Part shown: in pieces, positions 14,084 through 60,645 of the stretch
How positions within the stretch are numbered: the stretch's first letter is position 1
Layout of the letters: each line of letters begins with the position of its first letter
Assembly: GCA_963769025.1 (NCBI GenBank)
Contig: CAVYKI010000003.1
Coordinates: forward strand, 832,001-896,000
Direction of reading: 5' to 3'
Length of the DNA: 64,000 bases
From: an uncultured Verrucomicrobiae bacterium
GTDB lineage: Bacteria > Verrucomicrobiota > Verrucomicrobiia > Chthoniobacterales > Chthoniobacteraceae
Position numbers and translations under genes: made by a program
Notes under the pieces: generated by a model
Told to the model about the DNA's origin: nothing
The model's database searches: none
Seen by the model: the letters and a program-made list of their open reading frames with translations, nothing else

Positions 14084-15585
14084 GTGAACGCTGTTCGTGT
14101 GAACGCACGCCGCTCCGCCACTTCCATCGCGGCGTTGCGACGTGGATTCCTCGGCTCCGTGGCCGTGGCATTCTTCGCCGCGCTGCTCCCGCTGCATGCC
14201 GCCGCGCCGGCGAAACCGAACATCGTCCTCATCTTCGTGGACAACCTCGGGAACGGGGACCTGCGCTGCTTCAATCCCGCGACACCGCACCGCACGCCGA
14301 ACATCGATCGCCTCGCGGCGGAAGGCACGCGCTTCACGAGCTTCTATGTCGCCAGCGGTGTCTGCACGCCAAGCCGCGCGGCGCTCATGACTGGCTGCTA
14401 CCCGCGACGCCTCGACATGCATGTGAGCGACCGCGGTGCCGTCGTGCTCCAGCCCGTCGCGCGCAAGGGACTCCATCCAGACGAGACGACCATCGCCGAG
14501 GTGCTGAAGTCCGCGGGCTATGCGACCGGCATTTTTGGAAAATGGCATCTCGGCGATCAGCCGGCGTTCCTGCCCACGCGTCAGGGCTTCGACGAGTGGT
14601 TCGGCATCCCGTACTCGGACGACATGACGAAGGACAAACGCCCCGACCGAATGGCCCGAGCTTCCGCTGATGCGCGGGGAAAAGGTGATCGAGGCGCCGG
14701 TGGAAAGGGATTTTCTCGTGAAACGCACGACGGAGGAAGTCATCGCATTCATCGAACGGAACAAGTCGCGGCCATTCTTCGCCTACGTGCCGCACACGAT
14801 GCCCGGTTCCACCGCGCATCCGTATTCAAGCCCGGCCTTCCGCGGCAAATCGGCGAATGGCGAATACGGCGACAGCGTGGAGGAACTCGACTGGAGCACC
14901 GGCGAAATCATGGCCGCGCTCAAGCGCCTCGGCCTCGACGCCAACACGCTTTTCATCTGGACCAGCGACAACGGCGCCGTGATGCGCAACCCGCCGCAGG
15001 GCAGCAGCGCGCCCTACAGGGGCTTCGGCTACGACACGAGCGAGGGCGCGATGCGCATGCCCTGCGTGATGCGCTGGCCGGGGAAAATCCCCGCCGGAAA
15101 AGTGCAGGACGCGCTCTGCTCGACGATGGATCTGCTGCCGACCGTCGCCCAGTTCACCGGCGTGCCGCCGCCCGCGAAGCCGATTGATGGCCGCGACATC
15201 CGCCCGATCGTCTTCGGTGCGGCGGATGCGAAGTCGCACTGGGATGAAGACGGCTTCGGCTACTACCGCCGCGGCCAGTTGCAGGCAGTGCGCGCGGGCC
15301 AGTGGAAGCTCTACCTGCCACTGGAGACGAAGCTCATCGAACAACGCCGCCAAGACATATCCCGCACCCGTGCCGGCGGAACTTTACGATGTGCGCTCCG
15401 ACCTTCACGAGGATCGCGAAGTTTCCGCGCGGCATCCCGACGTGGTGAAGCGCCTCACCGCGCTCGCGGAGAGGATCCGCGGCGAAATCGGCGACGACGA
15501 CAAGCCCGGAACCGGCCAGCGACCCGCCGGGAATGTGGAGAATCCGGTACCGCTGCTTTTGCAGGACGCAAAGCCGCCGCGCTGA
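14084..15585 (+). CDS. Arylsulfatase-family sulfatase, split by apparent frameshifts near 14650 and 15345
   Basis: KPNIVLIFVDNLG, CTPSRAALMTG, GKWHLG, TSDNG, EGAMRMP, ELYD across three ORFs; start uncertain. Confidence 0.88.
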
Positions 15586-15687
15586 TTCGCGGGCCGCTAC
15601 GCCAGACCGGGGCCATCGCCGGAATCGAAAGGAGGTCGCCTCGATGGCAAATAAACGCCACCGTCCGGGGTGAGTTCCCTGCGCCAC

Positions 15688-18600
15688 ATGTCCCGCAAAC
15701 ACCTTCCCCTCCCCCTGACCCCGTTCATCGTGTCCGCGCTCCTGCTGGCGGCGACCGGTCATGCCCAGACGACGCCCGATTTCCAGCGCGACATCCGGCC
15801 CATTCTTTCGAATGTCTGCTTCAAGTGCCACGGGCCCGATCAGGACGAGCGCAAGGGCGGCAAGACGGGGAGCGGACGGGCTGCGCTTCGACACCGAGGA
15901 TGGCTCGCGCGCGGACCTCGATGGTTACTTCGCAATCGTGCCCGGGCATCCCGAGAAGAGTGATTTGATCGCGCGCATCACCACGGACGATCCGGATGAC
16001 CTGATGCCGCCGCCGAAGTCGGGAAAGAAGCTTTCGCCGCGCGAGATCGAATTGCTCACGCAGTGGATCAAGGCCGGCGCGAAATACACGAAGCACTGGG
16101 CCTACGAAAAGCCGGTGCGGCCGCAGTGCCGGAAATCCGTAGTTCGGAATCCGGAATCCGGAATCCCATCGATGCATTCATCCTCGCGCGGCTGGAGAGG
16201 GAGAAGCTCTCGCCGCAGCCGGAGGCGGATCGCCACGCGCTGATCCGCCGCGTTTCGCTCGACCTCACGGGGCTGCCGCCGACGCCGGAGGAGGCGGATG
16301 CCTTCGCCGCTGACAAATCACCGGACGCCTATGGGAAAGTCGTGGACCGGCTGCTCGCATCGCCGGCCTACGGCGAGCACTGGGGCCGCGCGTGGCTCGA
16401 CCTCGCGCGCTATGCCGACTCGGCGGGCTATGCGGACGATCCGCCGCGGACGATCTGGGCGTATCGCGACTACGTCATCCGCGCGTTCAATTCGAACATG
16501 CCGTTCGATCAGTTCACCATCGAGCAGCATCGCCGGCGACCTGCTGCCAAACCCGACCGAGGACCAGCTCATCGCGACCGCCTTTCATCGCAACACGATG
16601 ACGAACAGCGAGGGCGGCACGGACGACGAGGAATTCCGCACCGCCGCGATCGTGGACCGCGCAAACACGACGATGTCCGTGTGGATGGGCACGTCGTTCG
16701 CCTGCGCGCAGTGCCACACGCACAAGTACGACCCGATCACCAACGCGGAATATTTCCGCCTCTACGCATTCCTGAACAACACGGCGGACGCGGACAAAAA
16801 GGATGAGTCGCCCGTGCTCAGCTTCATGACCGCGGAGCAAAAGACGCAGCGCGCGCAATGGGAGGCGGAACTGGCGGCGCTCGATGCGAAATTCAAGACG
16901 CCGCCCGCGCCGGTGATCGCCGGTGCGGCAAAATGGGCGCGCGAATTTCCCTCGAAGCTCGACTGGCGCTCGCCGCAGCCAGCCGCGGCAAAGGCGAAGT
17001 CCGGCGCCGCGATGGAAGCGCAGGCGGACGGCACGATCGCGGTGCCGAAGAACGATGCGAAGAAGGACACCTACACGGTGGAACTTCCGTCGCCGCTCGA
17101 CGGAGACAATTTCCGCGCTCCGAATCGAATCACTCCCGGCGGACACGCTGCCCGGCAAGGGTGCGGGGCATGGCGGCGGGAATTTTGTCGTCACGCGCGT
17201 GCGTGCGACGGTCGTGCCGCCAGCCGGGACCAAGGGGCCGGTCGCGCGCTTCGTCCGCATCGAGCTGCCGGGAAAAAAGAAGATCCTCCAACTCGCGGAG
17301 GTCGAGGTTTTCAGCGGCGCGAAGAACGTCGCGCTTGACGGTGCGGCGACGCAATCCGGGACGCTTGCGGATGCGGAGGCGAAGCGGGCGATCGATGGCA
17401 ACACGGCTGGCGAATACGCGAAGGGCTCCGTCGCACACGCCGCGGAAGGCGACGATCGCTGGTGGGAGGTGGATCTGAAAGCCGACTACCCGCTCGATCG
17501 CATCGTCGTCTGGAATCGCGCCGAGCTGCCCGAACGGCTGAAAGGATTCCGCGTGGTCGCACTCGACGCGAAGCGGCAGCCCGTGTGGGAGCGCGCCGAC
17601 AATGACGCGCCGGCGAAGAGCGTTTCCTTCGCCTTGAACGGGAACCGCGAAATGGCATTCAGCGCCGCAGTCGCGGATTTCACACAAGCCGACTTCGACG
17701 AGCAGGGCGTGCTGTCCGACGCGCCGAAGGACGCCAAGCCGAAAGCCGGCAAGAAGCAGCCGGGCTGGGCGGTCGGCGGCGCGACGACGAAGCCGCACAC
17801 GCTCACGCTCCTCGCCATCGAAGCCCGTGGATGCGCCGGCCGGTTCGCGCATCGTCGTGACCATCGAGCACGAGTCGAAGTTTGAGAAGATGACGCTCGG
17901 GCGCTTCCGCATCGCCGACGACGTCCGACCCGCGCGTCGCCGCGCATGTGCGCACGCCGGTGGACGTGCTCGGCATCCTCGCAGTCGCCGCCGAGCAGCG
18001 GACTCCCGCGCAGCGCGAGCGCCTGAAGGATTACTACGCGCGGCAGCTCGCACCCGAGCTGAAATCCGAGCGCGACAAACTCGCGGCGCTGCGCAAGCAG
18101 ATCGACGGCATGATGCCGGTGACGGTGCCGATGTTCCGCGAGCTCGCCGGCGACCAGCGGCGGAAGACGAAGATTCAACTGCGCGGCAATTTTCTCTCGC
18201 TCGGCGACGAGGTGACGGAAGGCGTGCCCGCGGCATTTCACCCGCTGCCGAAGGACGCGCCGATGAACCGCCTCACGCTCGCGCGCTGGCTGGTGGACGA
18301 GAACAATCCGCTCACCGCGCGCGTGGTCGCGAACCGTTTTTGGGAATCCATCTTCGGCATCGGCATCGTGCGCACGAGCGAGGAATTCGGCGCGCAGGGC
18401 GATGCGCCGTCGCATCCCGAACTGCTCGACTGGCTGGCGACCGAACTGGTCCGCGAAAAGTGGGACATGAAGAAATTCCTGAAGCTGCTCGTGACTTCCG
18501 CGACGTACCGCCAGTCGTCGAAGGTCACGCCTGAACTCGTCGAGCGCGACCCGGACAACCGGCTGCTCGCGCGCGGCCCGCGCTTCCGCATGGGCGCCGA

Positions 18601-19205
18601 GATGGTGCGCGATCAGGCGCTCGCGGTGAGCGGCCTGCTTTCGCGGAAAATGTTCGGCCCGTCGGTGCGCCCGCCGCGTCCGAACATGGGACTGAGCGCG
18701 GCATTCGGCGGCGGCCTCGACTGGGAGACCAGCGCCGGCGAGGACATGCACCGCCGCGCGCTCTACACCGAATGGCGCCGCACCGCGCCGTATCCCTCGA
18801 TGGTCACTTTCGACGCGCCCAACCGCGAGGTCTGCACGCTGCGCCGCAACCGCACGAACACGCCGCTCCAGGCGCTCGTGACGATGAACGACCCGGTGTA
18901 CGTCGAGGCCGCGCAGGCGCTCGCGCGACGCATGGTCGCGGGCGGCTCGACAGCCGAGGAAAAGGCGCGTGCCGGCTTCCGGCTCACGCTCACCCGCCCC
19001 CCGACCGAGAGGGAATTGCGACGCCTCATCGCGCTTCACGAGAGCGTCCTCGCGACCTACCGGCAGGATGAAAAGAAGGCGCGTCGAGATGGCGACGAAT
19101 CCAGTCGGCCCCGCGCCGAAAGGCGCGGACGTCGCCGACCTCGCCGCATGGACGACCGTCGCGAACACTCTGCTGAATCTCGACGAAACCGTGATGAAGC
19201 GCTGA
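15688..19205 (+). CDS. PSCyt1-DUF1549-DUF1553 (planctomycete cytochrome c) protein with inserted lectin-like domain; several frameshifts
   Basis: [100 protein letters not shown]. Confidence 0.9.
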
Positions 19206-19210
19206 ACCCC

Positions 19211-20672
<1,462 letters not shown>

Positions 20673-20830: not shown

Positions 20831-20897
20831 AATGCGTCTCGGTCTGCCCTAAGATGACCGCGCAGATTGCGTCCATTTTCACCAACACTCAGATCCC

Positions 20898-22545: not shown

Positions 22546-23391
22546 ATGAAGATCGACTCGCATCACCACTTTTGGAAATACAGTGCCGAGCAATATCCGT
22601 GGATCGGCGACTCGATGGCTGCGTTGCGCCACGACTTTCTGCCGGAGCATTTGAAGGCGGAGATTGCGGCAGCGGGGATCGATGGCGTGATCTCCGTGCA
22701 GGCCCGGCAGAGTGTCAGCGAGACGGAGTGGCTGCTGTCGCTCGCGCATGGGAATGATTTCATCAAGGGCGTCGTCGGCTGGGTGCCTCTCGCGGAGGCA
22801 GGCGTGAGCGAGGTGGTCGGAAAATTTGCGGCGAATCCGAAACTGCGCGCCGTGCGGCATGTGGTGCAGGACGAGCCGGATGATCGGTTCATCCTCGGCG
22901 CGGATTTTAACCGCGGCGTCTCCGTGCTGAAGGACTTTGGCCTTGTGTACGACATCCTGATTCTCGAGCGACAGCTCGCGCCGTCGATCGAGTTTGTGGA
23001 CCGTCATCCGCAGCAGATGTTCGTGCTCGATCACATCGCGAAGCCGCGCATCGCCGAAGGCGCCATCGAGCCTTGGCGCACGGATATCCACGAGCTTGCA
23101 AGGCGGCAGAACGTCTTCTGCAAAGTCTCCGGCATGGTGACCGAGGCGGATTGGAAGACGTGGAGCGCGGAGGAACTGCGACCGTACTTCGATGCCGTGC
23201 TGGAGGCGTTCGGCCCGAAGCGGCTGATGTTCGGCACCGACTGGCCCGTATGCCTCGCGGCCTCCGGTTACGCGCGATGGGTGGATGTGGTCCGCAAGTT
23301 TGCGGCAGAGCTTTCCGCCGAAGAGCAGGATTGGCTGTTCGGCAACACGGCGGTGCAGGCTTACAGCCTCTCGCGCGGCGAACCGGCTTGA
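22546..23391 (+). CDS. Amidohydrolase_2 family, L-fucono/L-rhamnono-lactonase-like
   Basis: IDSHHHFW, GVVGWV, VLDHIAKP, KVSGMVTEA, FGPKRLMFGTDWPVC. Confidence 0.85.
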   Translation: MKIDSHHHFWKYSAEQYPWIGDSMAALRHDFLPEHLKAEIAAAGIDGVISVQARQSVSETEWLLSLAHGNDFIKGVVGWVPLAEAGVSEVVGKFAANPKLRAVRHVVQDEPDDRFILGADFNRGVSVLKDFGLVYDILILERQLAPSIEFVDRHPQQMFVLDHIAKPRIAEGAIEPWRTDIHELARRQNVFCKVSGMVTEADWKTWSAEELRPYFDAVLEAFGPKRLMFGTDWPVCLAASGYARWVDVVRKFAAELSAEEQDWLFGNTAVQAYSLSRGEPA

Positions 23392-23427
23392 AACCACCAC
23401 AGCGCCCGCATCCCGCGCCTCGATTGC

Positions 23428-23979
23428 TCAGATGACCTCGCGATATACGTCCGGGTGCGGGCGCGAGATCACGACGGCATTCACCAGCACTCCAGCTTCG
23501 GCGATGACGGCGCGACCGGCGGCGACGGCAGCCTGAACGGAACTCACATCGCCAGTCAGCGTGCAGAACGCCTTTCCTCCGAGTGCCATCGCGAGGCGGA
23601 CTTCGAGAAGTTGCACATCGGCGGCTTTCGCAGCGGCGTCGGCGGCCTTGATGAGCGTGGCAACATTGAACGACTCGAAGATGCCCAGCGCGCCGGTCGG
23701 CTCGACCGGTGTGGTGCGGCCGATCGCGGTGAGCACGCTTGGATGCAGGTTCGCGATGACGACGTGGTCGATGAGGCAGCCGCCCGCGACTTCGGTCGCG
23801 GTGGCGATGGCGGCCTCGACGCTCGCGGTGTCCCCTGCGACGAGGACCATGTATTTCCCCGAACAGATGGAACGCGAAAGCATGAGCTTCACGTTGCCCG
23901 CCTTGAGCGCGGAGTCCGCGACGCAGAATCCGGACGCGATGCTGGAAAGTTCGATGAGGCCTACGGACTTGTCGTTCAT
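23428..23979 (-). CDS. pduT: Tandem-domain BMC shell protein (BMC-T), PduT-like
   Basis: GLIELSSIASG, ICSGKY with the conserved Cys, second domain GIFE...ADAAAKAADV...LGGKAF, VISRPH. Confidence 0.85.
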   Translation of the reverse strand: MNDKSVGLIELSSIASGFCVADSALKAGNVKLMLSRSICSGKYMVLVAGDTASVEAAIATATEVAGGCLIDHVVIANLHPSVLTAIGRTTPVEPTGALGIFESFNVATLIKAADAAAKAADVQLLEVRLAMALGGKAFCTLTGDVSSVQAAVAAGRAVIAEAGVLVNAVVISRPHPDVYREVI

Positions 23980-25292
23980 TGCTTGGAAAGCGTGATGCGA
24001 TCCGCAAAGACCGCCGTGACGGTTGCCGCGAAAGGCGCATGGATGATCGCGCCGAGGGCATTTGGCGCGGGTTCGGAAATGGGCTGCCCGGCTTTCACCA
24101 ACTCGCCGGCTTTCACGAGCGGCACGGTGGGCCCGCCGGCGCTTTGTTTCAGCGGGAGGACGACCTTCTTCGCCTCGACAACGCCCGCGCGGAGCGGCGC
24201 CTGGCTGTCGTATTGCTCGATGTGCATCTTCTTCATCAGCGTCTTGATCGGCACGTGCCGTCCGTCGCGCATCGGGTGGACTTTGATGTCCGTTTTTCCG
24301 GTCCACTTGAAATTCTGCTTCCGCAACACGGCCTTCGAGTCGTCGCACGCTTCCTTCGGATACAGCTCCTCGGGGCACGCGTAGAGCGTGCAAAGGCCGC
24401 ACGAACAGCAGAGCGCGGCCCATTCGTTAAAGCGCTCCGAGCCCGTGCCGGTGAACGCGAGCGTGCGCATGACCTGGTGCGGCTCGACCTGGTAGCCGAG
24501 CAAAAAGCGCGGGCAAAATTCCGTGCAGTAACGGCACTGGTCGCACGCCGACTTGCCGATCGCGGCCTGTGTCTTCGCGGGCTTGAACTTCTTCTCCATC
24601 ACGTGATGCGTGCGCGGCAGGATGATGGCGCCGGTGCTCGTCTTCACCACGGGCCGGTCAAGATCGTCGGTCGTCTCCCCCATCATGAGTCCGCCGATGG
24701 CGAGCACGGGATCATCGCACGTCGCACCGCCCGCGGCCTCGATGCACTCGCGGTAACTGATTCCGATCGGCACGGTGAGCGATACCGGCTCACCGACCGC
24801 GCCGGCGATGGTGATTGTCTTGTGCGTGACCGGCTTTCCGTCCACAGCCTGCGCGATGTTTGCGAGCGTCTCGACGTTGTTGACGATTGCTCCGACGTGG
24901 ATCGGCAGTCCCGCGGGCGGGATGAGTTTCCCGGTGACGGTGTAAACGAGATCGTACTCGTCGCCCGCCGGGTAAAAGTCACCGAGCAACTGCACCCGCA
25001 CGCGCGTCCCCTTGCATGCATCCTCGATCGCTTCGACGGCTTTCTTCTTCTTCGCCTTGATGCCGATCACGCCTTCGTTCGCCCCGGTCGCAGCCATGCT
25101 CAGCTCGACGCCTCGGACAACGTCAGCCGCGTAATGTTCCATCACTGCCGCATCCTTGTGCAGCAGCGGCTCACACTCCGCGCCGTTGGCGATGATGATC
25201 TCGGCCTTCGAGCCGAGCTTCACATGCGCCGGAAATCCGCCGCCACCCGCACCGACAACACCAGCGAGCCGGACTTGATCGACGAGTGACAT
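23976..25292 (-). CDS. pduS: PduS/RnfC-like flavin- and Fe-S-containing oxidoreductase
   Basis: GVVGAGGGGFP, ANGAECEPLL, YPAGDE, CDQCRYCTEFCP, CCSCGLCTLYACP. Confidence 0.88.
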   Translation of the reverse strand: MSLVDQVRLAGVVGAGGGGFPAHVKLGSKAEIIIANGAECEPLLHKDAAVMEHYAADVVRGVELSMAATGANEGVIGIKAKKKKAVEAIEDACKGTRVRVQLLGDFYPAGDEYDLVYTVTGKLIPPAGLPIHVGAIVNNVETLANIAQAVDGKPVTHKTITIAGAVGEPVSLTVPIGISYRECIEAAGGATCDDPVLAIGGLMMGETTDDLDRPVVKTSTGAIILPRTHHVMEKKFKPAKTQAAIGKSACDQCRYCTEFCPRFLLGYQVEPHQVMRTLAFTGTGSERFNEWAALCCSCGLCTLYACPEELYPKEACDDSKAVLRKQNFKWTGKTDIKVHPMRDGRHVPIKTLMKKMHIEQYDSQAPLRAGVVEAKKVVLPLKQSAGGPTVPLVKAGELVKAGQPISEPAPNALGAIIHAPFAATVTAVFADRITLSKQ

Positions 25293-25301
25293 GCCCTGCG
25301 C

Positions 25302-26378
25302 CTACTTTTTCAGATTCGCGACGATTTCGTCGGTGAGCTTCTGCACGAGCGCTTCGATCTCGGCATCGCTCGATGGCGACGCCATTCGTCATCGGATTGA
25401 ACGGCGTGACCGGCGATGAGCAGCCGTGCGAGCCGCACATCTGCGTCCACGGATCGACTTCGCAGAGGCCGGCGGGCTTGAGGTCGTAGCGGTCGTCGGG
25501 GAGGCCGAGGCTCTTCTTGATGTTGAGCAATTCGGGCAGCTTGTCGCACGGGATCGACGCGCTGCCGGGAATGGCCTGCGCGAGGATGACCGTGCGGCAA
25601 TACGCGTCGGTGATCTCCATTTTGAAATACGCGTCCTCGACCGACTTGCCCCAGCAGATCACGCCGTGGTTGCCCATGAGGATGGACTGGTGCTTCGGCG
25701 CGAGCGGGAAAATCTCCGCGGCGATCTCCGGCGAACCGGGCGTCTTGTAAGGCGTGTAGGCGACCGTGCCGACGAACACTTCCAGTTCGGGAATCAGGCG
25801 CGGCGGCGGCTGCATGCCCTTGATGGCGAATGCGCCCGCGTGGACCGGATGCGCGTGGCACACGCTCACGGCCTCGGGCGTGGAATGGAAGATGGCCATG
25901 TGCGTGGTGATTTCGCTGGAGCGCTTCCACGTGCCGCCGAGCTGCTTTCCCTTGCCATCGACCATGCACATCATGTCGGGCGTCATGAAGCCCTTGCTCA
26001 CGCCGGTCGGCGTGCAGATGAAGCGATCCGGGCCGAGCCGCGCGGAGATGTTGCCGCCGTTGCCGTCGCAATATTCGCGCGCCCAGATGCGGCGTCCGAT
26101 GTCGCAGATCTGTTCCTTGATCGTCGTTCGCTTCCTTCGAGGCGAAAAGGCGACGTCATCCGCGCTGTAGGCCGGATGCTCCGGCGGCAGGCGCGGGTGC
26201 AGCGGCGCGTGCGTCACCGCCAGGGCGACTGCGCGGCTCCGTCGTAAACGACCTTTATGCCCGCCTCGGTGAAGATGTCCTTCGCGCCGGGCGTGAGGCG
26301 CGTTTCGCCGTTCTGCCGGAATTCCTTCGCGCCGGTTTTGACAAAGTCTGCGGCTTCTTTTTGTGCGATGAGTTTCAT
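25302..26378 (-). CDS. Class II aldolase (fuculose/rhamnulose-1-phosphate aldolase-like) of the microcompartment; frameshifted at both ends
   Basis: GNGGNIS, TPTGVSKG, SSE..THM, HAHPVHA, PYKTPGS, MGNHG; C-terminal amphipathic EIEALVQKLTDEIVANLKK. Confidence 0.88.
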
Positions 26379-26381
26379 AGT

Positions 26382-26659
26382 TTATTCCTTGTAGAAAAAT
26401 TCGTCGACGAGCGCGGCGCAGTAGGCGTCCACGGGGGTTGGCTTCTCGAATGGGCACGCGGCCTCGCGGCCTTCGCTGATCGCGATCTGCTGCCCGACGC
26501 CCGCGCCGAGCTGATCGTAGACGACGATCGCCGGGTCATGCTTCTCGCGCCGCCGAAAGTGTCCGTCTTCCACGGCAGCGTCAGCAGGAGCCGCTCGCCG
26601 ATGTATTTCTTCGAGCGCACGGAAAGTGTGACGCGGCCGATGACGGTGCCCATTCTCAT
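26382..26659 (-). CDS. EutN/CcmL BMC vertex pentamer (frameshifted)
   Basis: MRMGTVIGRVTLS then, in a shifted frame, VYDQLGAGVGQQIAISEGREA...PVDAYCAALVD. Confidence 0.85.
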
Positions 26660-26919
26660 AGCGCGAGGCTCCTCTCCGGATCGATGATGCCCATCACGGA
26701 CCAGCGCGCCGGACTGCGTTCGTCGCCGACCATCTTGCGCGCCTCGCTGCCGTCGCTGGAGATCATCACCTTCTGCCCGATGCCCGCGCCGAGGGAATCG
26801 AGCACGATCTGCGGTGCGAGATCCGGACTCTCAGGGATCGCGATGAGCAGCCGCCAGCCATCGAGGCTTTTGTGCTTCACCGTCGATGTGACGTGTCCCT
26901 TGATCGTCGCTAAGCGCAT
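26656..26919 (-). CDS. EutN/CcmL BMC vertex pentamer
   Basis: MRLATIKGHVTSTVKHKSL, DSLGAGIGQKVMISSDG, GIID. Confidence 0.9.
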   Translation of the reverse strand: MRLATIKGHVTSTVKHKSLDGWRLLIAIPESPDLAPQIVLDSLGAGIGQKVMISSDGSEARKMVGDERSPARWSVMGIIDPERSLAL

Positions 26920-26927
26920 TGGGGCAT

Positions 26928-28358
26928 TTAGAAAAGGTTCAGGTTTTCCACCATCACGCAGCGGCGCGAGCGGGTGAACGTCATGGGCGTGGTGACGCCT
27001 TCGCCGGTCGGCGTGGCGACGCTGAAGCTCAGGAAGCCTTCGCCGCCGAGACCGAGGCCGGTCATGCACGGGCCGTTCTTGATGAATAGCGTGGTGTCCA
27101 CGACCTGCGCCATCTTGGTGAGGTTGCGGATGTTCTGCGAATGCATGATCGCCGTGTGCTTGTAGTTGTGTTCGGCCTTGATCGCTTCCGCGATGGCGAC
27201 GTCCACATTCGGCACGCGCACGACGGGGATGAAGGGCATCATCTGCTCCTCATCGACGAAAATGTGGTCCGCCTTCGTCTCGCCGAAGAGGAGCTGCGTG
27301 GACGGCGGGACGTCGAGGCCGATGGCCTTCGCGAGCACCGCGGCGTCGCGGCCCACGAGGTCGCGGTTCACGACCGGATGCGGGCAGCCCGCGCCTTTTC
27401 CCTGCGGGAAAACGAACGCCTTTTCCGCGAGCGCCTCGATCTGCCTGGCGTCGAGTTGCACGGCTCCGGCGCGCTTCAGCGCGGCCATCAGTTTGTCCGC
27501 GACGGCTTCGACGACGAACACTTCCTTTTCGCCGATGCAGAGCAGGTTGTTGTCGTAGCTCGCACCCTGGATGATGCACTTCGCTGCGTGATCGAGGTCG
27601 GCGGTTTCGTCGACGACGACCGGCGGATTTCCGGGCCCGGCGCAAATCGCGCGCTTGCCGACTTTCATCGCCGCCGCGACGACCGCGGGGCCGCCGGTGA
27701 CGCAGAGCAGCCGCACCTTCGGGTGCTTGCACATGATGTCGAAGGTTTCGAGCGTCGGCTTCACCACGGTGGTCAGCAGGTCGCTGATGCCGGTCTCCTG
27801 GAAAATCGCCTCATTATAGCCGCGCACCGCGAGCGCCGCCACGTTGCACGCGGCGGGATGCGTGTTGAAGACCGCGGCATTGCCGGCGGCGATCATGTTG
27901 ATCGCATTGCCCGTGAGCGTCGGGACGCTGTGCGTCGAGGGAGTCACCGCACCGACAACTCCCCACGGCGCGAAATCCACAATCGTCAGGCCGAAGTCGC
28001 CGCTGAAAGCCATGCGCTCGAGGAACTCGACGCCGGGCACGAGGTCGCCGCAAATCTTGAGCTTCTCGATCTTGTGATCGAGGCGGCCGATTTTCGTCTC
28101 GGCCATTTCGATTTCGCCCCACTCCTTCGCCTTCGCGACGCACATCTTGCGGATGACATTGATCGCCTTGCGCCGCGCGGACACGCCGAGTTCGCGCAGC
28201 TTTTCAAAGGAGCGATGCGCCGCCTCGCACGCGTCTTCCATTTTCTCATACACGCCAAACGCGGTCTTCGAGGAAGGCGCGGCCTTTGTCTGCGAGGCGA
28301 GGCGGGCGAGCACTTCGCTCACCACTTTGGATACCAGTTTTTCGTCAATCATTGCCAT
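26928..28358 (-). CDS. CoA-acylating aldehyde dehydrogenase (EutE/PduP family)
   Basis: ETKIGR, PWGVVGAVTPST, TGGPAVV, GPGNPP, DNNLLCIGEKE, TPTGEG; N-terminal encapsulation-peptide-like helix. Confidence 0.93.
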   Translation of the reverse strand: MAMIDEKLVSKVVSEVLARLASQTKAAPSSKTAFGVYEKMEDACEAAHRSFEKLRELGVSARRKAINVIRKMCVAKAKEWGEIEMAETKIGRLDHKIEKLKICGDLVPGVEFLERMAFSGDFGLTIVDFAPWGVVGAVTPSTHSVPTLTGNAINMIAAGNAAVFNTHPAACNVAALAVRGYNEAIFQETGISDLLTTVVKPTLETFDIMCKHPKVRLLCVTGGPAVVAAAMKVGKRAICAGPGNPPVVVDETADLDHAAKCIIQGASYDNNLLCIGEKEVFVVEAVADKLMAALKRAGAVQLDARQIEALAEKAFVFPQGKGAGCPHPVVNRDLVGRDAAVLAKAIGLDVPPSTQLLFGETKADHIFVDEEQMMPFIPVVRVPNVDVAIAEAIKAEHNYKHTAIMHSQNIRNLTKMAQVVDTTLFIKNGPCMTGLGLGGEGFLSFSVATPTGEGVTTPMTFTRSRRCVMVENLNLF

Positions 28359-28379
28359 GTGAAGTCAGTTTAGAAGTTG

Positions 28380-28464
28380 GCCCGCGAAAGACGCGAAAGG
28401 ACGCGAAAATTTCGGGGAGATGTTGATGGAATTCATTTCGCGCATTTTCGCGTGTTGCGCGGGC
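28380..28464. repeat. Intergenic CGCGAAA-type palindrome, copy A
   Basis: gcccgcgaaagacgcgaaaggacgcgaaa ... tttcgcgcattttcgcgtgttgcgcgggc. Confidence 0.75.
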
Positions 28465-28470
28465 ACGAAG

Positions 28471-28779
28471 TCACTGCGCTTTGAACAGGATGTGTTTGCC
28501 GACATCCACGGTGTCCACGATGCCGATCACGACGGCATCCACGGGCGAATCCTTGTCGTCAGCCGCGAGCCGCGCGGAGCTGCCCTGCACGATGAGGACG
28601 ATTTCGCCTTCCCCCGCGCCGAGGGTGTCCGTGACCACGAGCGTGCTCGTGCCGGGCTTCCATTCCTTGGCCGTCGGCGAATCAATCACAAGCGGACGCA
28701 CGAGGAGAAACTTGTTCCCCGTCATCTTCTTGTTCTTCTTCGTCGCGACGACGCTGCCTTCTACGCGGGCTAAAATCAT
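28471..28779 (-). CDS. EutN/CcmL BMC vertex pentamer
   Basis: MILARVEGSVVATKK, DTLGAGEGE, QGSSAR, PVDAVVIGIVD. Confidence 0.93.
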   Translation of the reverse strand: MILARVEGSVVATKKNKKMTGNKFLLVRPLVIDSPTAKEWKPGTSTLVVTDTLGAGEGEIVLIVQGSSARLAADDKDSPVDAVVIGIVDTVDVGKHILFKAQ

Positions 28780-28792
28780 GGTCTGAGTTTGT

Positions 28793-28873
28793 GCCCGTGA
28801 AATACGCGGAAATTGCGAAATGGATTCAGGCAAAAGCCCCGCCCTTTTCGTGTCATTTCGTGTGTTTCGCGGG
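28793..28873. repeat. Intergenic CGCGAAA-type palindrome, copy B
   Basis: cccgtgaaatacgcggaaattgcgaaa ... tttcgtgtcatttcgtgtgtttcgcggg. Confidence 0.7.
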
Positions 28874-28880
28874 TGTCAAA

Positions 28881-29162
28881 TTACTTCGCCTTCGGGAGCA
28901 CTGCGACGAGATCGCCGTGCGGGCGCGCGATGACGCTGATGCTGACGATTTCGCCGAGGCCTTGCGCGGCGATCTTGCCGGCTTCGGTCGCGGCTTTCAC
29001 GGCGGCGACATCGCCGGTGACGCAGACGGTCACCATTGCGTTGCCGACCTGGGTGATGGGGCCGACGAGTTCGACGTTGGCGGATTTGAGCATCGCGTCC
29101 GTCGCTTCGACGAGTGCGACGAGGCCGCGGGTTTCGATGAGTCCGATTGCTTGTTGTGCCAT
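28881..29162 (-). CDS. BMC hexamer shell protein (BMC-H)
   Basis: [35 protein letters not shown]. Confidence 0.95.
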   Translation of the reverse strand: MAQQAIGLIETRGLVALVEATDAMLKSANVELVGPITQVGNAMVTVCVTGDVAAVKAATEAGKIAAQGLGEIVSISVIARPHGDLVAVLPKAK

Positions 29163-29225
29163 ATGATTAGTTGAATGTTGAGGGTTGAGTGTTGAGAGAC
29201 GCGCGAGCGAACTCCGGTTGTTTGG

Positions 29226-30410
29226 TTAGTTGCTGGTTGAAAGTTTTGCCCACGCGTTGCGGGCGATGATGATTTCCTCGTTCGTCGGAATGACGCGCAC
29301 TTCGATCTTCGAGCGCGGCGTGGAGATAACGGCTTCGTCGGCGCGCGTGCGGTTGTTTGCGTCGCGGTCGAGTTCGAGGCCGCAGAATTCGAGGTTCGCG
29401 CAGATTTTCTCGCGGAGGATCGGGTTGTTCTCGGCGATGCCTGCGGTGAAAATGAGGACGTCGGCGCCGTTCAGCTCGACAAGGAACTGGCCGATGTATT
29501 TGCGGATCGCGGCGACGAATACATCGAGCGCGATGGACGCGTCGGCGTTGCCTTTCGCGGCTGCGTCGAGCAAGTCGCGGATGTCGCCGGTCGCGAGGCC
29601 GGAAAGGCCTTTGAGGCCGGACTGCGAGGTCAGCGCCTTTTCCACGGCATCAATGCCGAGGCCGAGGTCACGGGCGAGGTAGATGAGCGCGAAGCAGTCG
29701 AAATCGCCCACGCGGTTGTTTTGCGGCAGTCCGCTCTGCGGCGTCATGCCCCAGCTCGAATCAATGGCCTTTCCATCGCGCACTGCGGCGATGGATGAAC
29801 TGCCGCCGAGGTGGCAGGAGATGATGCGCAGCTTGTCCGTGCCGCGCAGTTCCGCGCAGCGCTGCGAGACGAAGCGATGGCTCGCGCCGTGGAATCCGTA
29901 GCGCCGGATGCCGTATTTCGTCTCCCATTCGCGCGGGACCGGGTAGCGCACGTTTTCCACCGGCACCTCGTCGTAAAATGCGGTCTCGAATGTGCCGATG
30001 CACGGGAGCTTCGGGTGCGATTTGTGGAAGCTGCGCACCGCCGCGACGTACGGCGGATTGTGCGCAGGCAGAAGCGTGTTGATTTCCTCCATCGCGCGTA
30101 GCACGGGCTCCGCGAGCACCTGCGTGCCCGAGATACCGCGGGCCATCACCGGCTTGAAGCCGACCGCCGCGAGTTCGCCGAACCCGCCGAGCATTTTTTC
30201 GACGAGCGCGATCGCTGCACCGTGGTCGGGCAAGGCGGTCGTGCCGCTTTGCTCCGGCTCGCTGCCGATCTGCGCCTTCCACGGCGACTCCGCGCTGCCG
30301 ATCCGCTCCACGCCACCCTTCGCCAGCACGCGCTCGGAGGGCATCTCGATCAAGCGGAACTTGAACGAGGTGCTGCCGATGTTGGCGACGAGGATTTTGT
30401 TTGGCGTCAT
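29226..30410 (-). CDS. ackA: Acetate/propionate kinase
   Basis: NIGSTSFKF, PAHNP, RRYGFHGASH, CHLGGSSS, FTAGIAEN, IPTNEE. Confidence 0.93.
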   Translation of the reverse strand: MTPNKILVANIGSTSFKFRLIEMPSERVLAKGGVERIGSAESPWKAQIGSEPEQSGTTALPDHGAAIALVEKMLGGFGELAAVGFKPVMARGISGTQVLAEPVLRAMEEINTLLPAHNPPYVAAVRSFHKSHPKLPCIGTFETAFYDEVPVENVRYPVPREWETKYGIRRYGFHGASHRFVSQRCAELRGTDKLRIISCHLGGSSSIAAVRDGKAIDSSWGMTPQSGLPQNNRVGDFDCFALIYLARDLGLGIDAVEKALTSQSGLKGLSGLATGDIRDLLDAAAKGNADASIALDVFVAAIRKYIGQFLVELNGADVLIFTAGIAENNPILREKICANLEFCGLELDRDANNRTRADEAVISTPRSKIEVRVIPTNEEIIIARNAWAKLSTSN

Positions 30411-30417
30411 GGATTTG

Positions 30418-30513
30418 GCCCGCGAAAGGCGCGAAAAAGCGCGGAAGGAGGTTTGTTGTCAGTTGGCGATCTGTTCCGGAAACCTTTCGCGATCTTTCGC
30501 GTGTTTCGCGGGC
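30418..30513. repeat. Intergenic CGCGAAA-type palindrome, copy C
   Basis: gcccgcgaaaggcgcgaaaaagcgcggaa ... tttcgcgatctttcgcgtgtttcgcgggc. Confidence 0.75.
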
Positions 30514-30528
30514 ACAGATGCCCGGTGT

Positions 30529-30834
30529 TTACTTCGCGGGTCCGTTCACCGGCTTTCCGCCGAGGAATTTCCCGAGACCGTGCAGGTCGTCGTGCGGACG
30601 CGGGATCACGTGGACGGCGACGACTTCGCCGATCGCGGTCGCTGCGGTCGCGCCAGCTTCGACGGCGGCCTTCACCGCGGCGACGTCGCCTTTCACAAAG
30701 ACGGTCACGTAGCCCGAGCCGACTTTTTCCCAGCCGATGAGTTCCACATTCGCGGCCTTCGTCATTGCGTCAGTTGCTTCGAACTGCGCGACGAGACCCT
30801 TGGTTTCGATCATTCCGATTGCTTGTCCAGCCAT
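30529..30834 (-). CDS. BMC hexamer shell protein (BMC-H)
   Basis: [37 protein letters not shown]. Confidence 0.95.
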
Positions 30835-30873
30835 AGTATTTGAGAGGTAAAAGTTGAGTGTTGAGAGGCGTGT

Positions 30874-31143
30874 CTAGCTGGTGAAAAACTTCAGCAGCTC
30901 CGGCGTGGGCCGGGCGATGACGTGGGACGCGACGAGATTGCCGACGCGCTTGGCCGCTTCCTTCCCGGCTTCGACTGCGGCCTTCACACTGCCGACGTCG
31001 CCGCGGACGATGGTCGTGATCAAGGCCCCGCCGATCGGGATGGATTTGACGAGTTGCACATTCGCGGCCTTGACCATGGCATCACTGGCTTCCACCAGGC
31101 CCACGTAGCCGCGCGTTTCGATTAGTCCGATTGCTTCGCTCAT
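30874..31143 (-). CDS. BMC hexamer shell protein (BMC-H)
   Basis: AIGLIETRG, DAMVKAANV, RGDVGSVKAAV, HVIARP. Confidence 0.95.
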   Translation of the reverse strand: MSEAIGLIETRGYVGLVEASDAMVKAANVQLVKSIPIGGALITTIVRGDVGSVKAAVEAGKEAAKRVGNLVASHVIARPTPELLKFFTS

Positions 31144-31171
31144 TTGTTTTTAGTTTTGGGTTAGAATTCGA

Positions 31172-31301
31172 CCCGCGGAATCCGCGAAAGGCTCGAAAGG
31201 GTTTGGTTGTTTGAAAGTGTCGTTCGCTGCTGCTGTCGCGCGTCCGTTGTGGGGTTGATTCAGTATGGAAAAATTTCGCGTCGTTTCGCGTGTTTAGCGG
31301 G
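31172..31301. repeat. Intergenic CGCGAAA-type palindrome, copy D
   Basis: cccgcggaatccgcgaaaggctcgaaa ... tttcgcgtcgtttcgcgtgtttagcggg. Confidence 0.7.
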
Positions 31302-31304
31302 CTG

Positions 31305-31979
31305 CTAGGTCTTGATCAGTTCGACCTTCGTCGCGCGTTCGAGATCGCAGGCATTCGCCTCGTCGGTGTCAATGTGCACCTCCAGCTTGAAGCTCGGATC
31401 CACGCGCACGATCATCTCGTCAAAGCGCGTGTTGCACATCGGCGAGGTGACTTTCATCGTGATCCGGTCGAGGTGCTTCACTCCGTAAAATTTTGCATCG
31501 CCCGGCGACATGTGGACGTGCCGCGCCGCGCGGATGATTCCGTTTTTCATCTCCAGCATTCCCTTCGGTCCCATCACGTATCCGCCGGGGGTTCCTTCGA
31601 TGTCGCCCGACATCTTTACCGGAATATCCATGCCGAGCTGCACGGCGTCCGTCAGCGCGAGTTCGATCTGCGTGAGATTCCGGCACGGTCCGAGGATTCT
31701 CATGCTCGGGATGACGCGGCGGCGCGGCCCGATGAGCGTCACCGTCTGCTCCGAGGCAAACTGCCCTTCCTGATAAAGCATCTTGTGGACGGTGAGCTTC
31801 GCACCCTTGCCGAAAAGCGTCTCCAGATTCTCCGGCGAAATGTGCATGTGCCGCGCGGAACTGTTCACCACGAGCGTCGGCGCATTTCCCGCCGGCACAT
31901 TTTGCCCTAGCTGTTTCGCCATGGAAGCGCGCACAAGGGCCTCGATGACGGGGCGGCTGGGGGCGGTGGTGGAACTCAT
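31305..31979 (-). CDS. pduL: Phosphate propanoyltransferase/acyltransferase PduL
   Basis: SARHMH, RILGP.R, Q.ELA.TDA, SGDIEGTPG, RHVHMSP, HIDTDEANA. Confidence 0.95.
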   Translation of the reverse strand: MSSTTAPSRPVIEALVRASMAKQLGQNVPAGNAPTLVVNSSARHMHISPENLETLFGKGAKLTVHKMLYQEGQFASEQTVTLIGPRRRVIPSMRILGPCRNLTQIELALTDAVQLGMDIPVKMSGDIEGTPGGYVMGPKGMLEMKNGIIRAARHVHMSPGDAKFYGVKHLDRITMKVTSPMCNTRFDEMIVRVDPSFKLEVHIDTDEANACDLERATKVELIKT

Positions 31980-31994
31980 TTTTAGAGGGAAAAC

Positions 31995-32039
31995 TTATAT
32001 GACTGGACGCAATCATATAAAAATGCGCGGCTTGGTCAA
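31995..32039 (-). promoter_or_regulatory. Sigma70-like promoter of the BMC operon with overlapping palindromic operator
   Basis: Minus strand TTGACC-N16-TATGAT (32039-32012); perfect inverted repeat TTATATGA-N10-TCATATAA (31995-32020) covers the -10 box. Confidence 0.65.
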
Positions 32040-32073
32040 TGGAAAAGTTTGCCTTTTTTACGCACGTGTCCGG

Positions 32074-32944
32074 TCATAAAATATGGACCGGCATTTCTTC
32101 GCTCTCCGACTCCGCCGGAGGCGTGCTTTCCTGCGCCGGGACAGCCCGTGCTGCCGCACCCCGCCCGCCCGTCGCGGTGCGCTGGCCCTCGCGCAGCGTG
32201 ATTCCGGCTTTCGCGAGGCGTTCATCGGCGACATCCGTGACCAGCGCATCCACCCGCTCCCACGGCACGAGGAAATGGGGAGCCTTCCGGTTCAGCTTCG
32301 AGCCATCAATGCAGAAGACCGCCCGCGTGCTGCGCTCGAGGACGACCCGCTGCTGGTCCACGATCGCCGCCTGCGAATTCCAAATTCCCTCCGGATCCAT
32401 CGCCTCCGCGGAGAGGAATGCCGTGTCGAACTTCCAAAACTCCAGGCTCTTCTGGGCCGTCTCGCCGAGCAGCGTGGACTGCAAATGCAGAAGCTGGCCC
32501 GCGACCATGGAACACCTGCACATCCGGAATCGCCGCCAGCATTTCGCCGACCGGCAGATTGGAAGTCACGATGGTCACCGGCGTGACCGGATGGTCGCAA
32601 AACGCCTCCGCCACCGCACAGATCGTCGTCCCGGAATCCAGGAAATAAGTCCCGTTCGGCTCCATGAATGACAGGGTCGTCCGGGCGATTTTCGCCTTCG
32701 CCTGCGCGGCCCTGCCCTGCCGGTCGCGGAATGAAGGAAACCGGTCATTAAACTCCGCCAGCGCCCCGCCGTGAGTGCGCTTGATCTTCTTCTCGCTGAC
32801 TAGCGCCGCCAAATCCCGACGAGCCGTCGCCTCGGAAACTCCAAGCCGGCGGCAAAGCTCCTTCACCGGCAGATAGCGGTGCTGCCCGAGCAACTGAGCA
32901 AGCCGCTCACGCCGCGCCTGCACGATATGAAAGGGAACCTTCAC
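32074..32944 (-). CDS. DeoR/GlpR family transcriptional regulator (frameshift near 32500)
   Basis: HTH LGVSEATARRDL, RTHGGA, K.KIA, FLDSGTT, VTSNL, DGSKL, LVTD. Confidence 0.9.
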
Positions 32945-50040: not shown

Positions 50041-50088
50041 TCTGCTCTGCTCCCCCGCTCCCGTCGCAAACCTTCACGCGCAAGCCCC

Positions 50089-52928: not shown

Positions 52929-52964
52929 TCGTTCGGAGTCCTCTGGCAGCCCGCTTCCGTTCGT

Positions 52965-53726
52965 TTATCCAAGGAACGCCTGCCACGCGAGCCGCAGCGC
53001 GAGCGCGAGTGCCACGGTGATGAACAGCGGCTTGATGACCCGCGCGCCGTGCGTGATGACCAGTCCGCTGCCGAGCCGCGCGCCTACGAGTTGCCCGACG
53101 ATCATCGCTGCGCCGACGTCGAAGCGCAGGCACCTGGAAAATGCGAATGCAGCGAGCGCGGCGAGGTTGCTCATGAGGTTCAGCGCCTTCGTCGTGCCGG
53201 TCGCGGTGCGGAGATTTTGCCCGAGTGTGAGCACGCACGCGAGCATCCAGAACGAGCCCACGCCCGGACCGAAGAAACCGTCGTAGAATCCGAGCAGCGT
53301 CCCGAACAGCAGTGCGAACGCGACCCTTCCGAGCCGTGCCGGACGCGGAGTGTCGCCGAGTCCCGGATTGAGCGCTGTGTAAATCGCAACGGCCACCAGC
53401 AGAGCCGGCACCACGCGGCGAAGGATCGCCGGGTCCATCACGGCTGCGGAACACGCACCGGCAGCGGATGCGGCAAAAGTGATCCCCGCAGCGAGCCGAA
53501 GCCCGCGCCATTGGATGAGTCCTGCCCGCATGTAGCGCGCGACCGCCAGCAGCGTCCCACACGTGGACTGAAGCTTGTTCGTCCCGAGCGCGATTTGCGG
53601 AGGGAGTCCCGCCCACACGAGCGCCGGCACGGAGATCAATCCACCACCTCCCGCGATGGCATCGATGAACCCTGCCGCCGCACCGGCGACGGAGAGCAGG
53701 AGGTAATGCCACCATTCGAGAGTCAC
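52965..53726 (-). CDS. TSUP (TauE/SafE) family transporter, YfcA-like
   Basis: GFIDAIAGGGGLI, ALGTNKLQ, GFYDGFFGPG. Confidence 0.92.
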   Translation of the reverse strand: MTLEWWHYLLLSVAGAAAGFIDAIAGGGGLISVPALVWAGLPPQIALGTNKLQSTCGTLLAVARYMRAGLIQWRGLRLAAGITFAASAAGACSAAVMDPAILRRVVPALLVAVAIYTALNPGLGDTPRPARLGRVAFALLFGTLLGFYDGFFGPGVGSFWMLACVLTLGQNLRTATGTTKALNLMSNLAALAAFAFSRCLRFDVGAAMIVGQLVGARLGSGLVITHGARVIKPLFITVALALALRLAWQAFLG

Positions 53727-53788
53727 GCACGCAGTCTTACGGCGGGCGGCGCGTGACTGGCACGCACCGATGTGCTAACGGATCTCCC

Positions 53789-59124: not shown

Positions 59125-59130
59125 GGTGGG

Positions 59131-60640: not shown

Positions 60641-60645
60641 GGCGT

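Follow-up and report, generated by a model that had tools for sequence, protein, structure and literature searches.

We analyzed a stretch of 64,000 nt (hereafter the window) from an uncultured Verrucomicrobiae bacterium of the Chthoniobacteraceae (GCA_963769025.1, contig CAVYKI010000003.1, positions 832,001-896,000 of the forward strand). A gene at 15688-19205 of the window encodes a DUF1549/DUF1553 cytochrome, into which a lectin domain is set. Comparisons of sequence and of predicted structure give good support for two statements: that 17241-17645 encodes a complete F-type lectin domain (FTLD), and that its strand order is circularly permuted, the usual two C-terminal strands coming first. 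By direct reading, the gene starts at 15688 with a hydrophobic N-terminus and ends with a stop codon at 19203-19205. PF07635, PF07583 (two pieces) and PF07587 were found above their cut-offs, in this order, in the window's frame pieces and in orthologues. The lectin had been placed inside a DUF1549/DUF1553 c-type cytochrome protein in a preliminary description of this DNA, and the Pfam domains together with two CXXCH motifs agree with that placement. The signal-peptide-like hydrophobic segment at the N-terminus implies that the protein would be exported via Sec; this and the twin-arginine reading given below were made by eye from the sequence, without a predictor. The parts of the gene are as follows, in window positions.

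15688..19205, + strand: whole cytochrome gene, with signal peptide, PSCyt1, PSCyt2 (DUF1549), host jelly roll with nested FTLD, and PSD1 (DUF1553); Pfam on frame pieces
15817..15831, + strand: first heme c motif, CFKCH, in PSCyt1; direct reading, PF07635 match
16703..16717, + strand: second CXXCH motif, CAQCH, inside DUF1549/PSCyt2; direct reading, PF07583 matches
16950..17240 (start approximate), + strand: N-terminal half of the host jelly roll, strands 12-88 of the orthologue model; crosses the indel (insertion or deletion) near 17096
17241..17312, + strand: permuted head of the FTLD, VARFVRIEL...LAEVEVF, equivalent to the last two strands of canonical F-type lectins by HMMER alignment to lectin C-termini
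17322..17645, + strand: body of the FTLD, KNVALDG...SVSFALNGN, equivalent to the first nine canonical strands by VIA-align superposition
17388-17402, + strand: calcium motif AIDGN of the FTLD body
17415-17417, + strand: Tyr of the FTLD body, in a column aligned across family members
17427-17429, + strand: Ser of the FTLD body, in a column aligned across family members
17436-17438, + strand: His of the putative sugar-binding triad, FTLD body
17517-17519, + strand: first Arg of the triad, FTLD body
17535-17537, + strand: second Arg of the triad, FTLD body
17646..17930, + strand: C-terminal half of the host jelly roll (GWAVGG, LGRFRIS), model strands 236-323, placed by alignment with an insert-less paralogue; crosses the indels near 17815 and 17915
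18266..19033, + strand: PSD1/DUF1553 domain, PF07587, E 7.5e-100

For comparison we used 80 related loci, kept from 140 confirmed relatives in a scan of one genome per species and belonging to Verrucomicrobiota and Planctomycetota, as well as genomes of the same genus, which are kin, so that counts among them are non-independent. Labels beginning with L denote related loci, G000 is the window's own genome and other G labels are same-genus genomes.

Identity, strand order and putative binding site of the lectin domain

The stretch 17241-17640 lies entirely in one frame, the nearest indels being near 17096 and 17815. When the 228-residue in-frame piece was compared with all PDB chains by phmmer, all 6/6 matches were F-type lectins, with E ranging from 3.5e-31 to 1.5e-08:

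3cqo, FBP32, E 3.5e-31
3le0 / 4gwi, lectinolysin, E 1.3e-14
2j1r, Streptococcus pneumoniae fucose-binding module (fucolectin-related protein), E 3.3e-14
2j22, S. pneumoniae fucose-binding module (fucolectin-related protein), E 3e-13
1k12, eel agglutinin, E 1.5e-08

The solved relatives of a whole 1174-residue orthologue were the same F-type lectins plus a marginal match to the c-type cytochrome FoxE (E 0.0013). In Pfam, the window piece scored 44.4 bits with PF22633 (F5_F8_type_C_2; cut-off 27.8), covering profile positions 1-68 of 91 only, and 27.5 bits with PF00754, below the cut-off of 28.2. We then compared folds using AlphaFold2 models of the orthologue module (residues 419-766; predicted local distance difference test, pLDDT, 92.4) and of the window domain alone (142 residues; pLDDT 90.5, predicted template modeling score, pTM, 0.86), to which DSSP assigned 8 strands and 3 short helices. 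The top VIA-align ranks were held by ten F-type lectin entries, at Z 12.3-14.4 for the orthologue module and 12.1-14.2 for the window domain. These ten lectins superposed with a root-mean-square deviation of 1.4-2.2 over 108-111 residues at 27-33% identity, model residues 27-136 falling on lectin residues 10-125 or thereabouts. A Foldseek-independent scan of 48,161 chains likewise placed three F-type lectins first (Z 13.4, 12.8 and 12.1), followed by a domain of the Akkermansia sialidase/fucosidase entry 8ayr (10.2), 6eon (10.0) and CBM32 domains (9.6 or lower). The Z values and the DSSP reading of the model agree with an F-type jelly roll bearing three short helices around the cation site. 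The F-type identity put forward in the preliminary description is therefore upheld by exclusively F-type sequence matches in PDB, by a PF22633 score above cut-off and by fold Z values of 12-14, where other discoidin/CBM32 domains reach about 10 at most.

The permutation is seen in how these alignments break. HMMER aligned query residues 73-162 to lectin residues 10-101 and query residues 47-73 to lectin residues 122-148. For lectinolysin, the head aligns to its last 27 residues and the following 90 residues to its first 90, and query residues 44-150 align straight over the boundary between the two domains of the tandem lectin FBP32. The head leads into the former N-terminus through a linker of 3-4 residues (F-SGA-KNVAL). 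In the 48,161-chain scan, the alignment begins at model residue 27-30 in 49/50 rows, with strands 3-11 and 19-27 outside it; all ten VIA-align lectin rows also start at residue 27-30, and they end some 20-30 residues before the end of the lectin chain. A strict pattern for the head strands was found in front of the domain in 59/81 sequences, and a C-terminal strand motif after it in 0/81. The canonical order of strands beta1-beta11 is not kept and we file the domain as a permuted FTLD variant, as had been proposed from the letters alone. Judging from sequence and model, the head strands very probably occupy in space the positions of the canonical last two strands. As a side observation, the galactanase BT0290 entry 6eon (residues 654-778) aligns with model residues 1-115 at Z 10.0, the sole row of the 50 to include the head strands; this match is either a register shift between jelly rolls or a solved domain with similar strand order.

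Local alignments to tandem lectins would look like permutation also if the head strands were the leftover of a lost upstream lectin repeat, and the domain a truncated one rather than a folded permuted lectin. We consider this extremely unlikely. The head is as conserved as the core in the 80 loci, with R8 in 80/80, A21 in 78/80 and E22 in 79/80 (R8, A21, E22 and V23 all in 78-80), and it supplies a calcium ligand. Its strands reach pLDDT 94-96 within the compact stand-alone 142-residue model, and none of the 81 sequences has C-terminal strands that could otherwise complete the fold. The permuted form itself probably arose from a tandem lectin array by excision of a window spanning a repeat boundary, because the top matches in a representative library are long multi-repeat proteins with up to 37 matched stretches, over whose repeat boundaries query residues 4-109 align contiguously.

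We next considered the ligand site. In eel agglutinin, the accessible part of a 2017 review (PMC5712786) gives His52, Arg79 and Arg86 as the fucose triad, with Phe45 in the methyl pocket, and Asn35, Asp38, Asn40, Ser49, Cys146 and Glu147 as calcium ligands. Adding 16 throughout converts eel agglutinin residues to window domain numbering, in agreement with the end points of the HMMER alignment:

Asp38 (eel agglutinin): Asp54 (window)
Asn40: Asn56
Phe45: Tyr61
Ser49: Ser65
His52: His68
Arg79: Arg95
Arg86: Arg101, one residue early
Cys146/Glu147: head Ala21/Glu22

In FBP32, the counterparts of H68, R95, E97 and R101 are His, Arg, Asp and Arg. The His, both Arg and the calcium Asp are invariant in family alignments of 57 and 58 sequences, in which Asn56, Tyr61 and Ser65 are at least nearly so. 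In the 80 loci the triad is almost invariant as well (His68 79/80, Arg95 80/80, Arg101 79/80). Among the calcium ligands, Asp54 is kept in 80 loci, the head residue Glu22 in 79 and Ser65 in 61 (Thr in 5, Gly in 11). The fucose triad and the h2DGx calcium motif named in the preliminary description are thus both retained, the latter as AIDGN, and the exact H-X26-R spacing and the R-X-E-X3-R tail that it had read are likewise present.

The tail deserves a comment. The review prints the motif as HX24RXDX4(R/K), yet the His and Arg that it numbers 52 and 79 are separated by 26 others; the FBP32 sequence aligned with the window likewise has 26. Taken literally as HX24(26)RXDX4(R/K), the motif matches the window in H-X26-R, and the window departs from it in what follows, R-A-E-L-P-E-R (R-x-E-x3-R). 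The acidic position after the first Arg is Asp in 67, Glu in 9 and Gly in 4 of the 80 loci, and the loop between the arginines reads R-x-D-x5-R in 49/81 sequences, x4 in 12/81 and R-x-E-x3-R in 7/81. The x3 of the window is one end of a range that includes lectinolysin (x5). Since the family varies from x3 to x7 and lectinolysin, solved with fucose (3lei), reads x5, the loop spacing is not strictly defining for F-type lectins. With the triad, the methyl-pocket aromatic residue and the calcium ligands kept, the most likely ligand of the FTLD is a terminal sugar of the alpha-L-fucose type (axial 4-OH, 6-deoxy-L-galacto configuration).

The fold could also have been retained without sugar binding, as a protein-protein or structural module, or for another ligand, within a cytochrome/DUF1501 machine. 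This would fit the shortened inter-arginine loop, the Glu in place of Asp, the missing Cys-Cys pair, the failure to find fucose genes near 12 diverse loci (see below) and the classification of F5_F8_type_C in such genes as a protein-interaction domain in He et al. 2017 (PMC5615132). A triad present in 79-80 of 80 loci across two phyla together with retained calcium ligands is hard to explain without a canonical site, and lectinolysin, too, departs from the printed loop length. In addition, the closest relative outside the family, of those looked at (55% identity), is attached to a catalytic domain of GH95, a fucosidase family. Overall, we regard a lectin fold without sugar binding as unlikely.

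Integrity of the gene, nesting and distribution

Alignment of the DNA to 8 orthologues located seven single-base indels in the cytochrome gene, with insertions near 15873, 16529, 17096, 17815, 17915 and 19083 and a deletion near 16123. The gene is consequently read across three frames, and all seven lie outside the 400-base FTLD stretch. Same-genus orthologues are uninterrupted, 1150-1200 residues long and 64-81% identical over the insert. We read the seven frameshifts, which had been noticed beforehand, as sequencing or assembly errors, because the essential genes alaS and rpoB are broken likewise and essential genes cannot be dead: at least five frame pieces are needed to read alaS, and four for the Rpb2_6 domain of rpoB (G000:C3:812579-815599 and G000:C3:126485-128054). 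The assembly consists of 13 contigs and reaches a marker completeness of just 83%. A sequencing run containing this strain was not found (best word share 0.10). Contigs of relatives from four runs omit one base at 16529, about 17818, about 17918, 19081/19083, 19922, 20101/20111 and 20412, which agrees with the orthologue alignment and is not an independent proof.

The cytochrome gene has seven frameshifts within 3.5 kb and its DUF1501 partner about nine, as opposed to zero in the nearby lactonase-like gene, which could also suggest a true pseudogene in this organism. Apart from the breakage of alaS and rpoB, nearly all changes are +1 insertions and the frame pieces still encode protein about 80% identical to the orthologues, which leaves this reading with hardly any probability. 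Small indels were seen throughout the assembly: within the window, an aldehyde dehydrogenase gene at 58255-60645 (-) lies in three frames, a sulfatase gene at 14084-15965 (+) in two, and the DUF1501 gene at 19211-20669 (+) carries about nine insertions of 1-2 nt. Gene calls anywhere in this assembly call for frameshift-aware reading.

In the orthologue model, the strands before residue 90 and after residue 236 form a second sandwich around the lectin. The matches of this host sandwich are generic (legume lectins, carbohydrate-binding modules and viral capsids, Z 5-7). A 1008-residue same-genus paralogue (G013) matches the orthologue over residues 12-506 and 648-1173, and the two stretches meet in the paralogue at residues 518 and 520; its host sandwich is uninterrupted, and what it lacks is exactly the lectin. 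In G012 (L020:6646-11636, G012:C68), the cytochrome has 835 residues, is 86% identical over DUF1553 and is without the entire 380-residue module of jelly roll and lectin. It sits in the same cluster of cytochrome, DUF1501 and lactonase-like genes, making a natural pair with and without the module. From the insert-less paralogue and the module-less orthologue it therefore follows that the module is dispensable for the core protein, and it is well supported that the FTLD is inserted in a loop of the host jelly roll, itself between DUF1549 and DUF1553, as an insert within an insert. A further paralogue of 1326 residues in G014 (L022:2781-6758, G014:C21) aligns to the host jelly roll and then again from DUF1553, with a different stretch of about 350 residues in between that has zero Pfam matches. 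Judging from this alignment, the same insertion site seems to accept other inserts.

A word-indexed search returned 802 clusters at E 1e-5 or better. Among the 120 clusters listed, all carry PF22633 and all but one PF07587, the exception being an 819-residue sequence that is probably a fragment. An exhaustive search of representatives found 7075 proteins at E 0.001, 2785 at 1e-10 and 428 at 1e-30. F-type-like lectin domains are abundant in environmental sequence data; this library carries no taxonomy, and the 80 genome loci are all bacterial. This contrasts with a 2025 review, the available text of which speaks of 'a few representatives' of F-type lectins in bacteria.

Across the 80 loci, the lectin lies between DUF1549 and DUF1553 in 60. 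Among the remaining 20 loci, open reading frames (ORFs) of all but L061, a 186-residue piece at a contig end, were scanned. Of these, 16/19 belong to a family with the architecture (ThuA)-GDSL-DUF7133-HEAT-lectin-cupredoxin and/or cytochrome c, 15 of them with DUF7133; L095, a contig-start fragment of this DUF7133-type family, has HEAT, lectin and cupredoxin only. Two of the 19 read lectin-HZS_alpha-FGE-sulfatase and one is without any other domain. In the DUF7133-type architecture (loci listed: L019:4202-8797, L072, L074, L077, L079-L082, L085, L086, L088, L092, L093, L095, L096, L098 and L100), the lectin is again joined to electron-transfer domains, and a DUF7133-type protein from the same genus shows the same alignment over the FBP32 domain boundary and matches F-type lectins in sequence. 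The third architecture (L073:2284-6375 and L102:9878-13930) has an N-terminal permuted lectin, a hydrazine-synthase-alpha middle domain and an FGE-sulfatase domain. The window's own genome contains a frameshifted lectin match on another contig (G000:C9:506287-506686).

Neighboring genes

The genes downstream of the cytochrome gene are:

19211..20669, + strand: DUF1501 partner gene, PF07394 in two frame pieces; starts 5 nt after the cytochrome stop; twin-arginine-like TRRHFL
20853-22442, + strand: SASA-like ORF of 530 residues, weak sialate O-acetylesterase-like match, between the DUF1501 and lactonase-like genes in this genome only
22546..23388, + strand: L-fucono-1,5-lactonase-like amidohydrolase gene (NF052480, PDB 4dlf), indel-free
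23428..32565, - strand: Planctomycetes/Verrucomicrobia-type microcompartment operon, by Pfam and BMC domain positions

The DUF1501 gene is the recurrent partner, downstream and on the same strand in 37/41 related loci where 3.5 kb or more of sequence follows. Another DUF1501 gene, this one intact, was found at 53669-55219 (E 2.3e-159) without an adjoining PSCyt/PSD gene; around it (window 49933-55219, +) lie a sulfatase and a metallophosphatase gene upstream and, on the other strand, a TauE sulfite exporter gene.

The gene at 22546-23388 scores 298.8 bits with NF052480 (E 4.6e-89, profile positions 1-286 of 287) and is called lactonase-like only, because this is below the 400-bit equivalog cut-off. 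It also matches PDB 4dlf (E 7.9e-65), which we take to be the BmulJ_04915 enzyme. BmulJ_04915 of Burkholderia multivorans is reportedly an L-fucono-1,5-lactonase, described by Hobbs et al. in 2013. In 6/6 determinable genomes (G000, G001, G003, G004, G014 and G015), the lectin is followed on the same strand, 3.0-4.8 kb downstream, by a lactonase-like copy of at least 77% identity, and in close relatives the gene is the third of the cluster, directly after DUF1501 in G001, G012 and G014. In G012 it follows the insert-less cytochrome/DUF1501 pair. Both lactonase and lectin genes are present in G011 and G024, on different short contigs, while in G005 and G010 a lactonase copy is present and a lectin orthologue was not found. 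Alongside the five remoter genus orthologues (64-69% identity), the only lactonase copies are about 50% identical and lie on other contigs.

Outside the genus, the neighborhoods of the 80 loci were searched for lactonase and microcompartment genes by tblastn (E 1e-8, up to 10 kb). The lactonase-like gene was found at 0/80 loci. No recurrent sugar-pathway partner was seen among 104 neighbor ORFs of 12 diverse loci in Pfam; only DUF1501 and further PSCyt/DUF1501 pairs recur. With a fucosidase or fucose-pathway neighbor in 0/12, fucose therefore gains no independent support from gene neighborhoods outside the genus. The lactonase-like gene hints at sugar-lactone chemistry in this lineage and does not define the family. 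The enzyme is probably cytoplasmic, because the orthologue frames of 276-280 residues leave zero room for a signal peptide, while the cytochrome/DUF1501 pair would be exported.

The microcompartment operon encodes a tandem-BMC shell protein, an RnfC/Nuo51-like protein, a class II aldolase, an aldehyde dehydrogenase, EutN, BMC shell proteins, acetate kinase, a PduL-type phosphotransacylase and DeoR. An ORF at 23392-24381 (+) was discarded, having zero Pfam matches; a PF00936 search shows the tandem-BMC shell gene on the minus strand instead. The preliminary description had drawn its functional lead from this operon, taken as a fucose/rhamnose-type microcompartment locus, and the lectin cytochrome might indeed sense fucosylated glycans or feed them into the adjacent pathway: the operon ends 4.2 kb from the cytochrome stop codon, both would concern 6-deoxy sugars, and BMC domains, including shell genes, were found in 12/13 same-genus genomes with the orthologue. 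The lead did not survive comparison with relatives. Shell, EutN, PduL and aldolase genes were found at 0/80 related loci, 34/60 cytochrome loci having at least 6 kb downstream. Lectin gene and operon are about 308 kb apart in G014 and about 50 kb in G015, and on different contigs in 10 other genomes. BMC domains also occur in 7/11 genus genomes without the orthologue, and the four genomes with neither are 63-96% complete. The operon is moreover on the opposite strand, convergent with the lactonase-like gene, and the insert is common (802 clusters) irrespective of deoxysugar genes. The link to the microcompartment pathway is largely refuted by this synteny and appears very improbable; we infer that the adjacency in the window is a local rearrangement and the operon a chance neighbor.

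Joint reading and comparison with known systems

Taken together, we consider it probable that an intact gene in this organism encodes an exported cytochrome with two CXXCH motifs and a nested, permuted FTLD that acts as a fucose-type binding cassette, and that the microcompartment operon lies beside it by chance. Several points weigh against this reading. The view of the frameshifts as errors rests on genome-wide breakage, no run of this strain having been found, and the spatial placement of the head strands on sequence, confidence values and unaligned ranges. The inter-arginine loop is one residue shorter than in the printed motif and has Glu in place of Asp, and the window domain lacks the pair of adjacent cysteines with which eel agglutinin contacts fucose. 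A fucosidase or fucose-pathway neighbor was missing from all 12 diverse loci, and F5_F8_type_C was classed under protein-protein interaction by He et al. 2017 (PMC5615132, in the part consulted).

On the joint reading, the FTLD may serve the periplasmic cytochrome/DUF1501 pair as an optional cassette for recognizing substrates or for targeting. A bolder version can be formulated, in which periplasmic electron-transfer enzymes of Planctomycetes and Verrucomicrobia have the permuted fucose lectin as a plug-in selector of their substrates. In this genus, the pair would oxidize L-fucose-type sugars, either free or terminal on glycans, to the lactone, which the fuconolactonase-like enzyme of the same cluster would open, and at least two further exported families (GDSL-DUF7133-HEAT-cupredoxin/cytochrome c and HZS_alpha-FGE-sulfatase) would have received the cassette by grafting. 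As a whole this version is speculative and quite unlikely; if true, it would give the first substrate class for the DUF1549/DUF1553/DUF1501 system.

Few gene pairs in Planctomycetes and Verrucomicrobia are duplicated as heavily as those of DUF1549/DUF1553 cytochromes with their DUF1501 partners. The lectin is the only part of the 1174-residue protein with a clear solved relative, its ligand residues are almost invariant, and it offers a practical handle on an unexplained family. For lectin biology, the gain would be an F-type fold that is circularly permuted at the level of the gene and serves as a nested insert, and the neighboring microcompartment is removed as a tempting but false lead.

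The module of DUF1501 with PSCyt1, PSCyt2 and PSD1 in Planctomycetes and Verrucomicrobia was described by Kamneva et al. 2012 (PMC3542564). In He et al. 2017, the F5_F8_type_C domains of such genes are listed among those for protein-protein interaction, and the function of the genes is said to be unknown. In the passages of both papers that were consulted, F-type identity, permutation, nesting in a jelly roll and presence or absence among orthologues are not mentioned. Occurrence of F-type lectin domains in Planctomycetes and Verrucomicrobia is noted in the 2017 review (PMC5712786), citing Bishnoi et al. 2015. We found no paper joining F-type lectins with DUF1553, and the census of Bishnoi et al. 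2015 may list such architectures. A search for literature on permutation of F-type lectins found none among the papers listed: 'permut' does not occur in the two lectin reviews (2017, PMC5712786, and 2025), the only papers on lectins there, and two further papers were irrelevant judging by their titles and the beginnings of their abstracts. Papers on the function of DUF1549/DUF1553/DUF1501 proteins were likewise not found, judging by titles and the beginnings of abstracts. F5/8-type-C domains in PSCyt/PSD proteins were already reported; F-type identity, permutation and nesting appear to be new.

Among known systems, the closest are the solved F-type lectins, namely Streptococcus mitis lectinolysin (3le0/3lei), the S. 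pneumoniae modules 2j1r and 2j22, striped bass FBP32 (3cqo) and eel agglutinin (1k12), with 27-33% identity to the window domain and Z 12-14. They have in common with it the His/Arg/Arg triad, the AIDGN motif, the Ser and Glu calcium ligands and the methyl-pocket aromatic residue. Unlike these lectins, which are terminal or tandem, the window domain is permuted and nested, has an inter-arginine spacing of x3 with Glu and contains zero cysteines. CBM32 and discoidin (F5/8 type C) domains and domain 1 of galactose oxidase share the galactose-binding-like jelly roll at Z 7-10, clearly lower than the F-type lectins. Only the His and first Arg of the triad are kept in the galactose-binding domain of a bacterial sialidase and in galactose oxidase, according to the accessible part of PMC5712786. 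Compared with the BmulJ_04915 lactonase, the window's lactonase-like gene matches NF052480 over its full length, but below cut-off, and it is apparently cytoplasmic and linked to the pair in this genus alone. Finally, concanavalin A and favin are related by a circular permutation among legume lectins that comes about through post-translational transpeptidation. They are likewise a case of a jelly-roll lectin read from a different start, whereas the permutation in the window would be encoded in the gene and combined with domain insertion.

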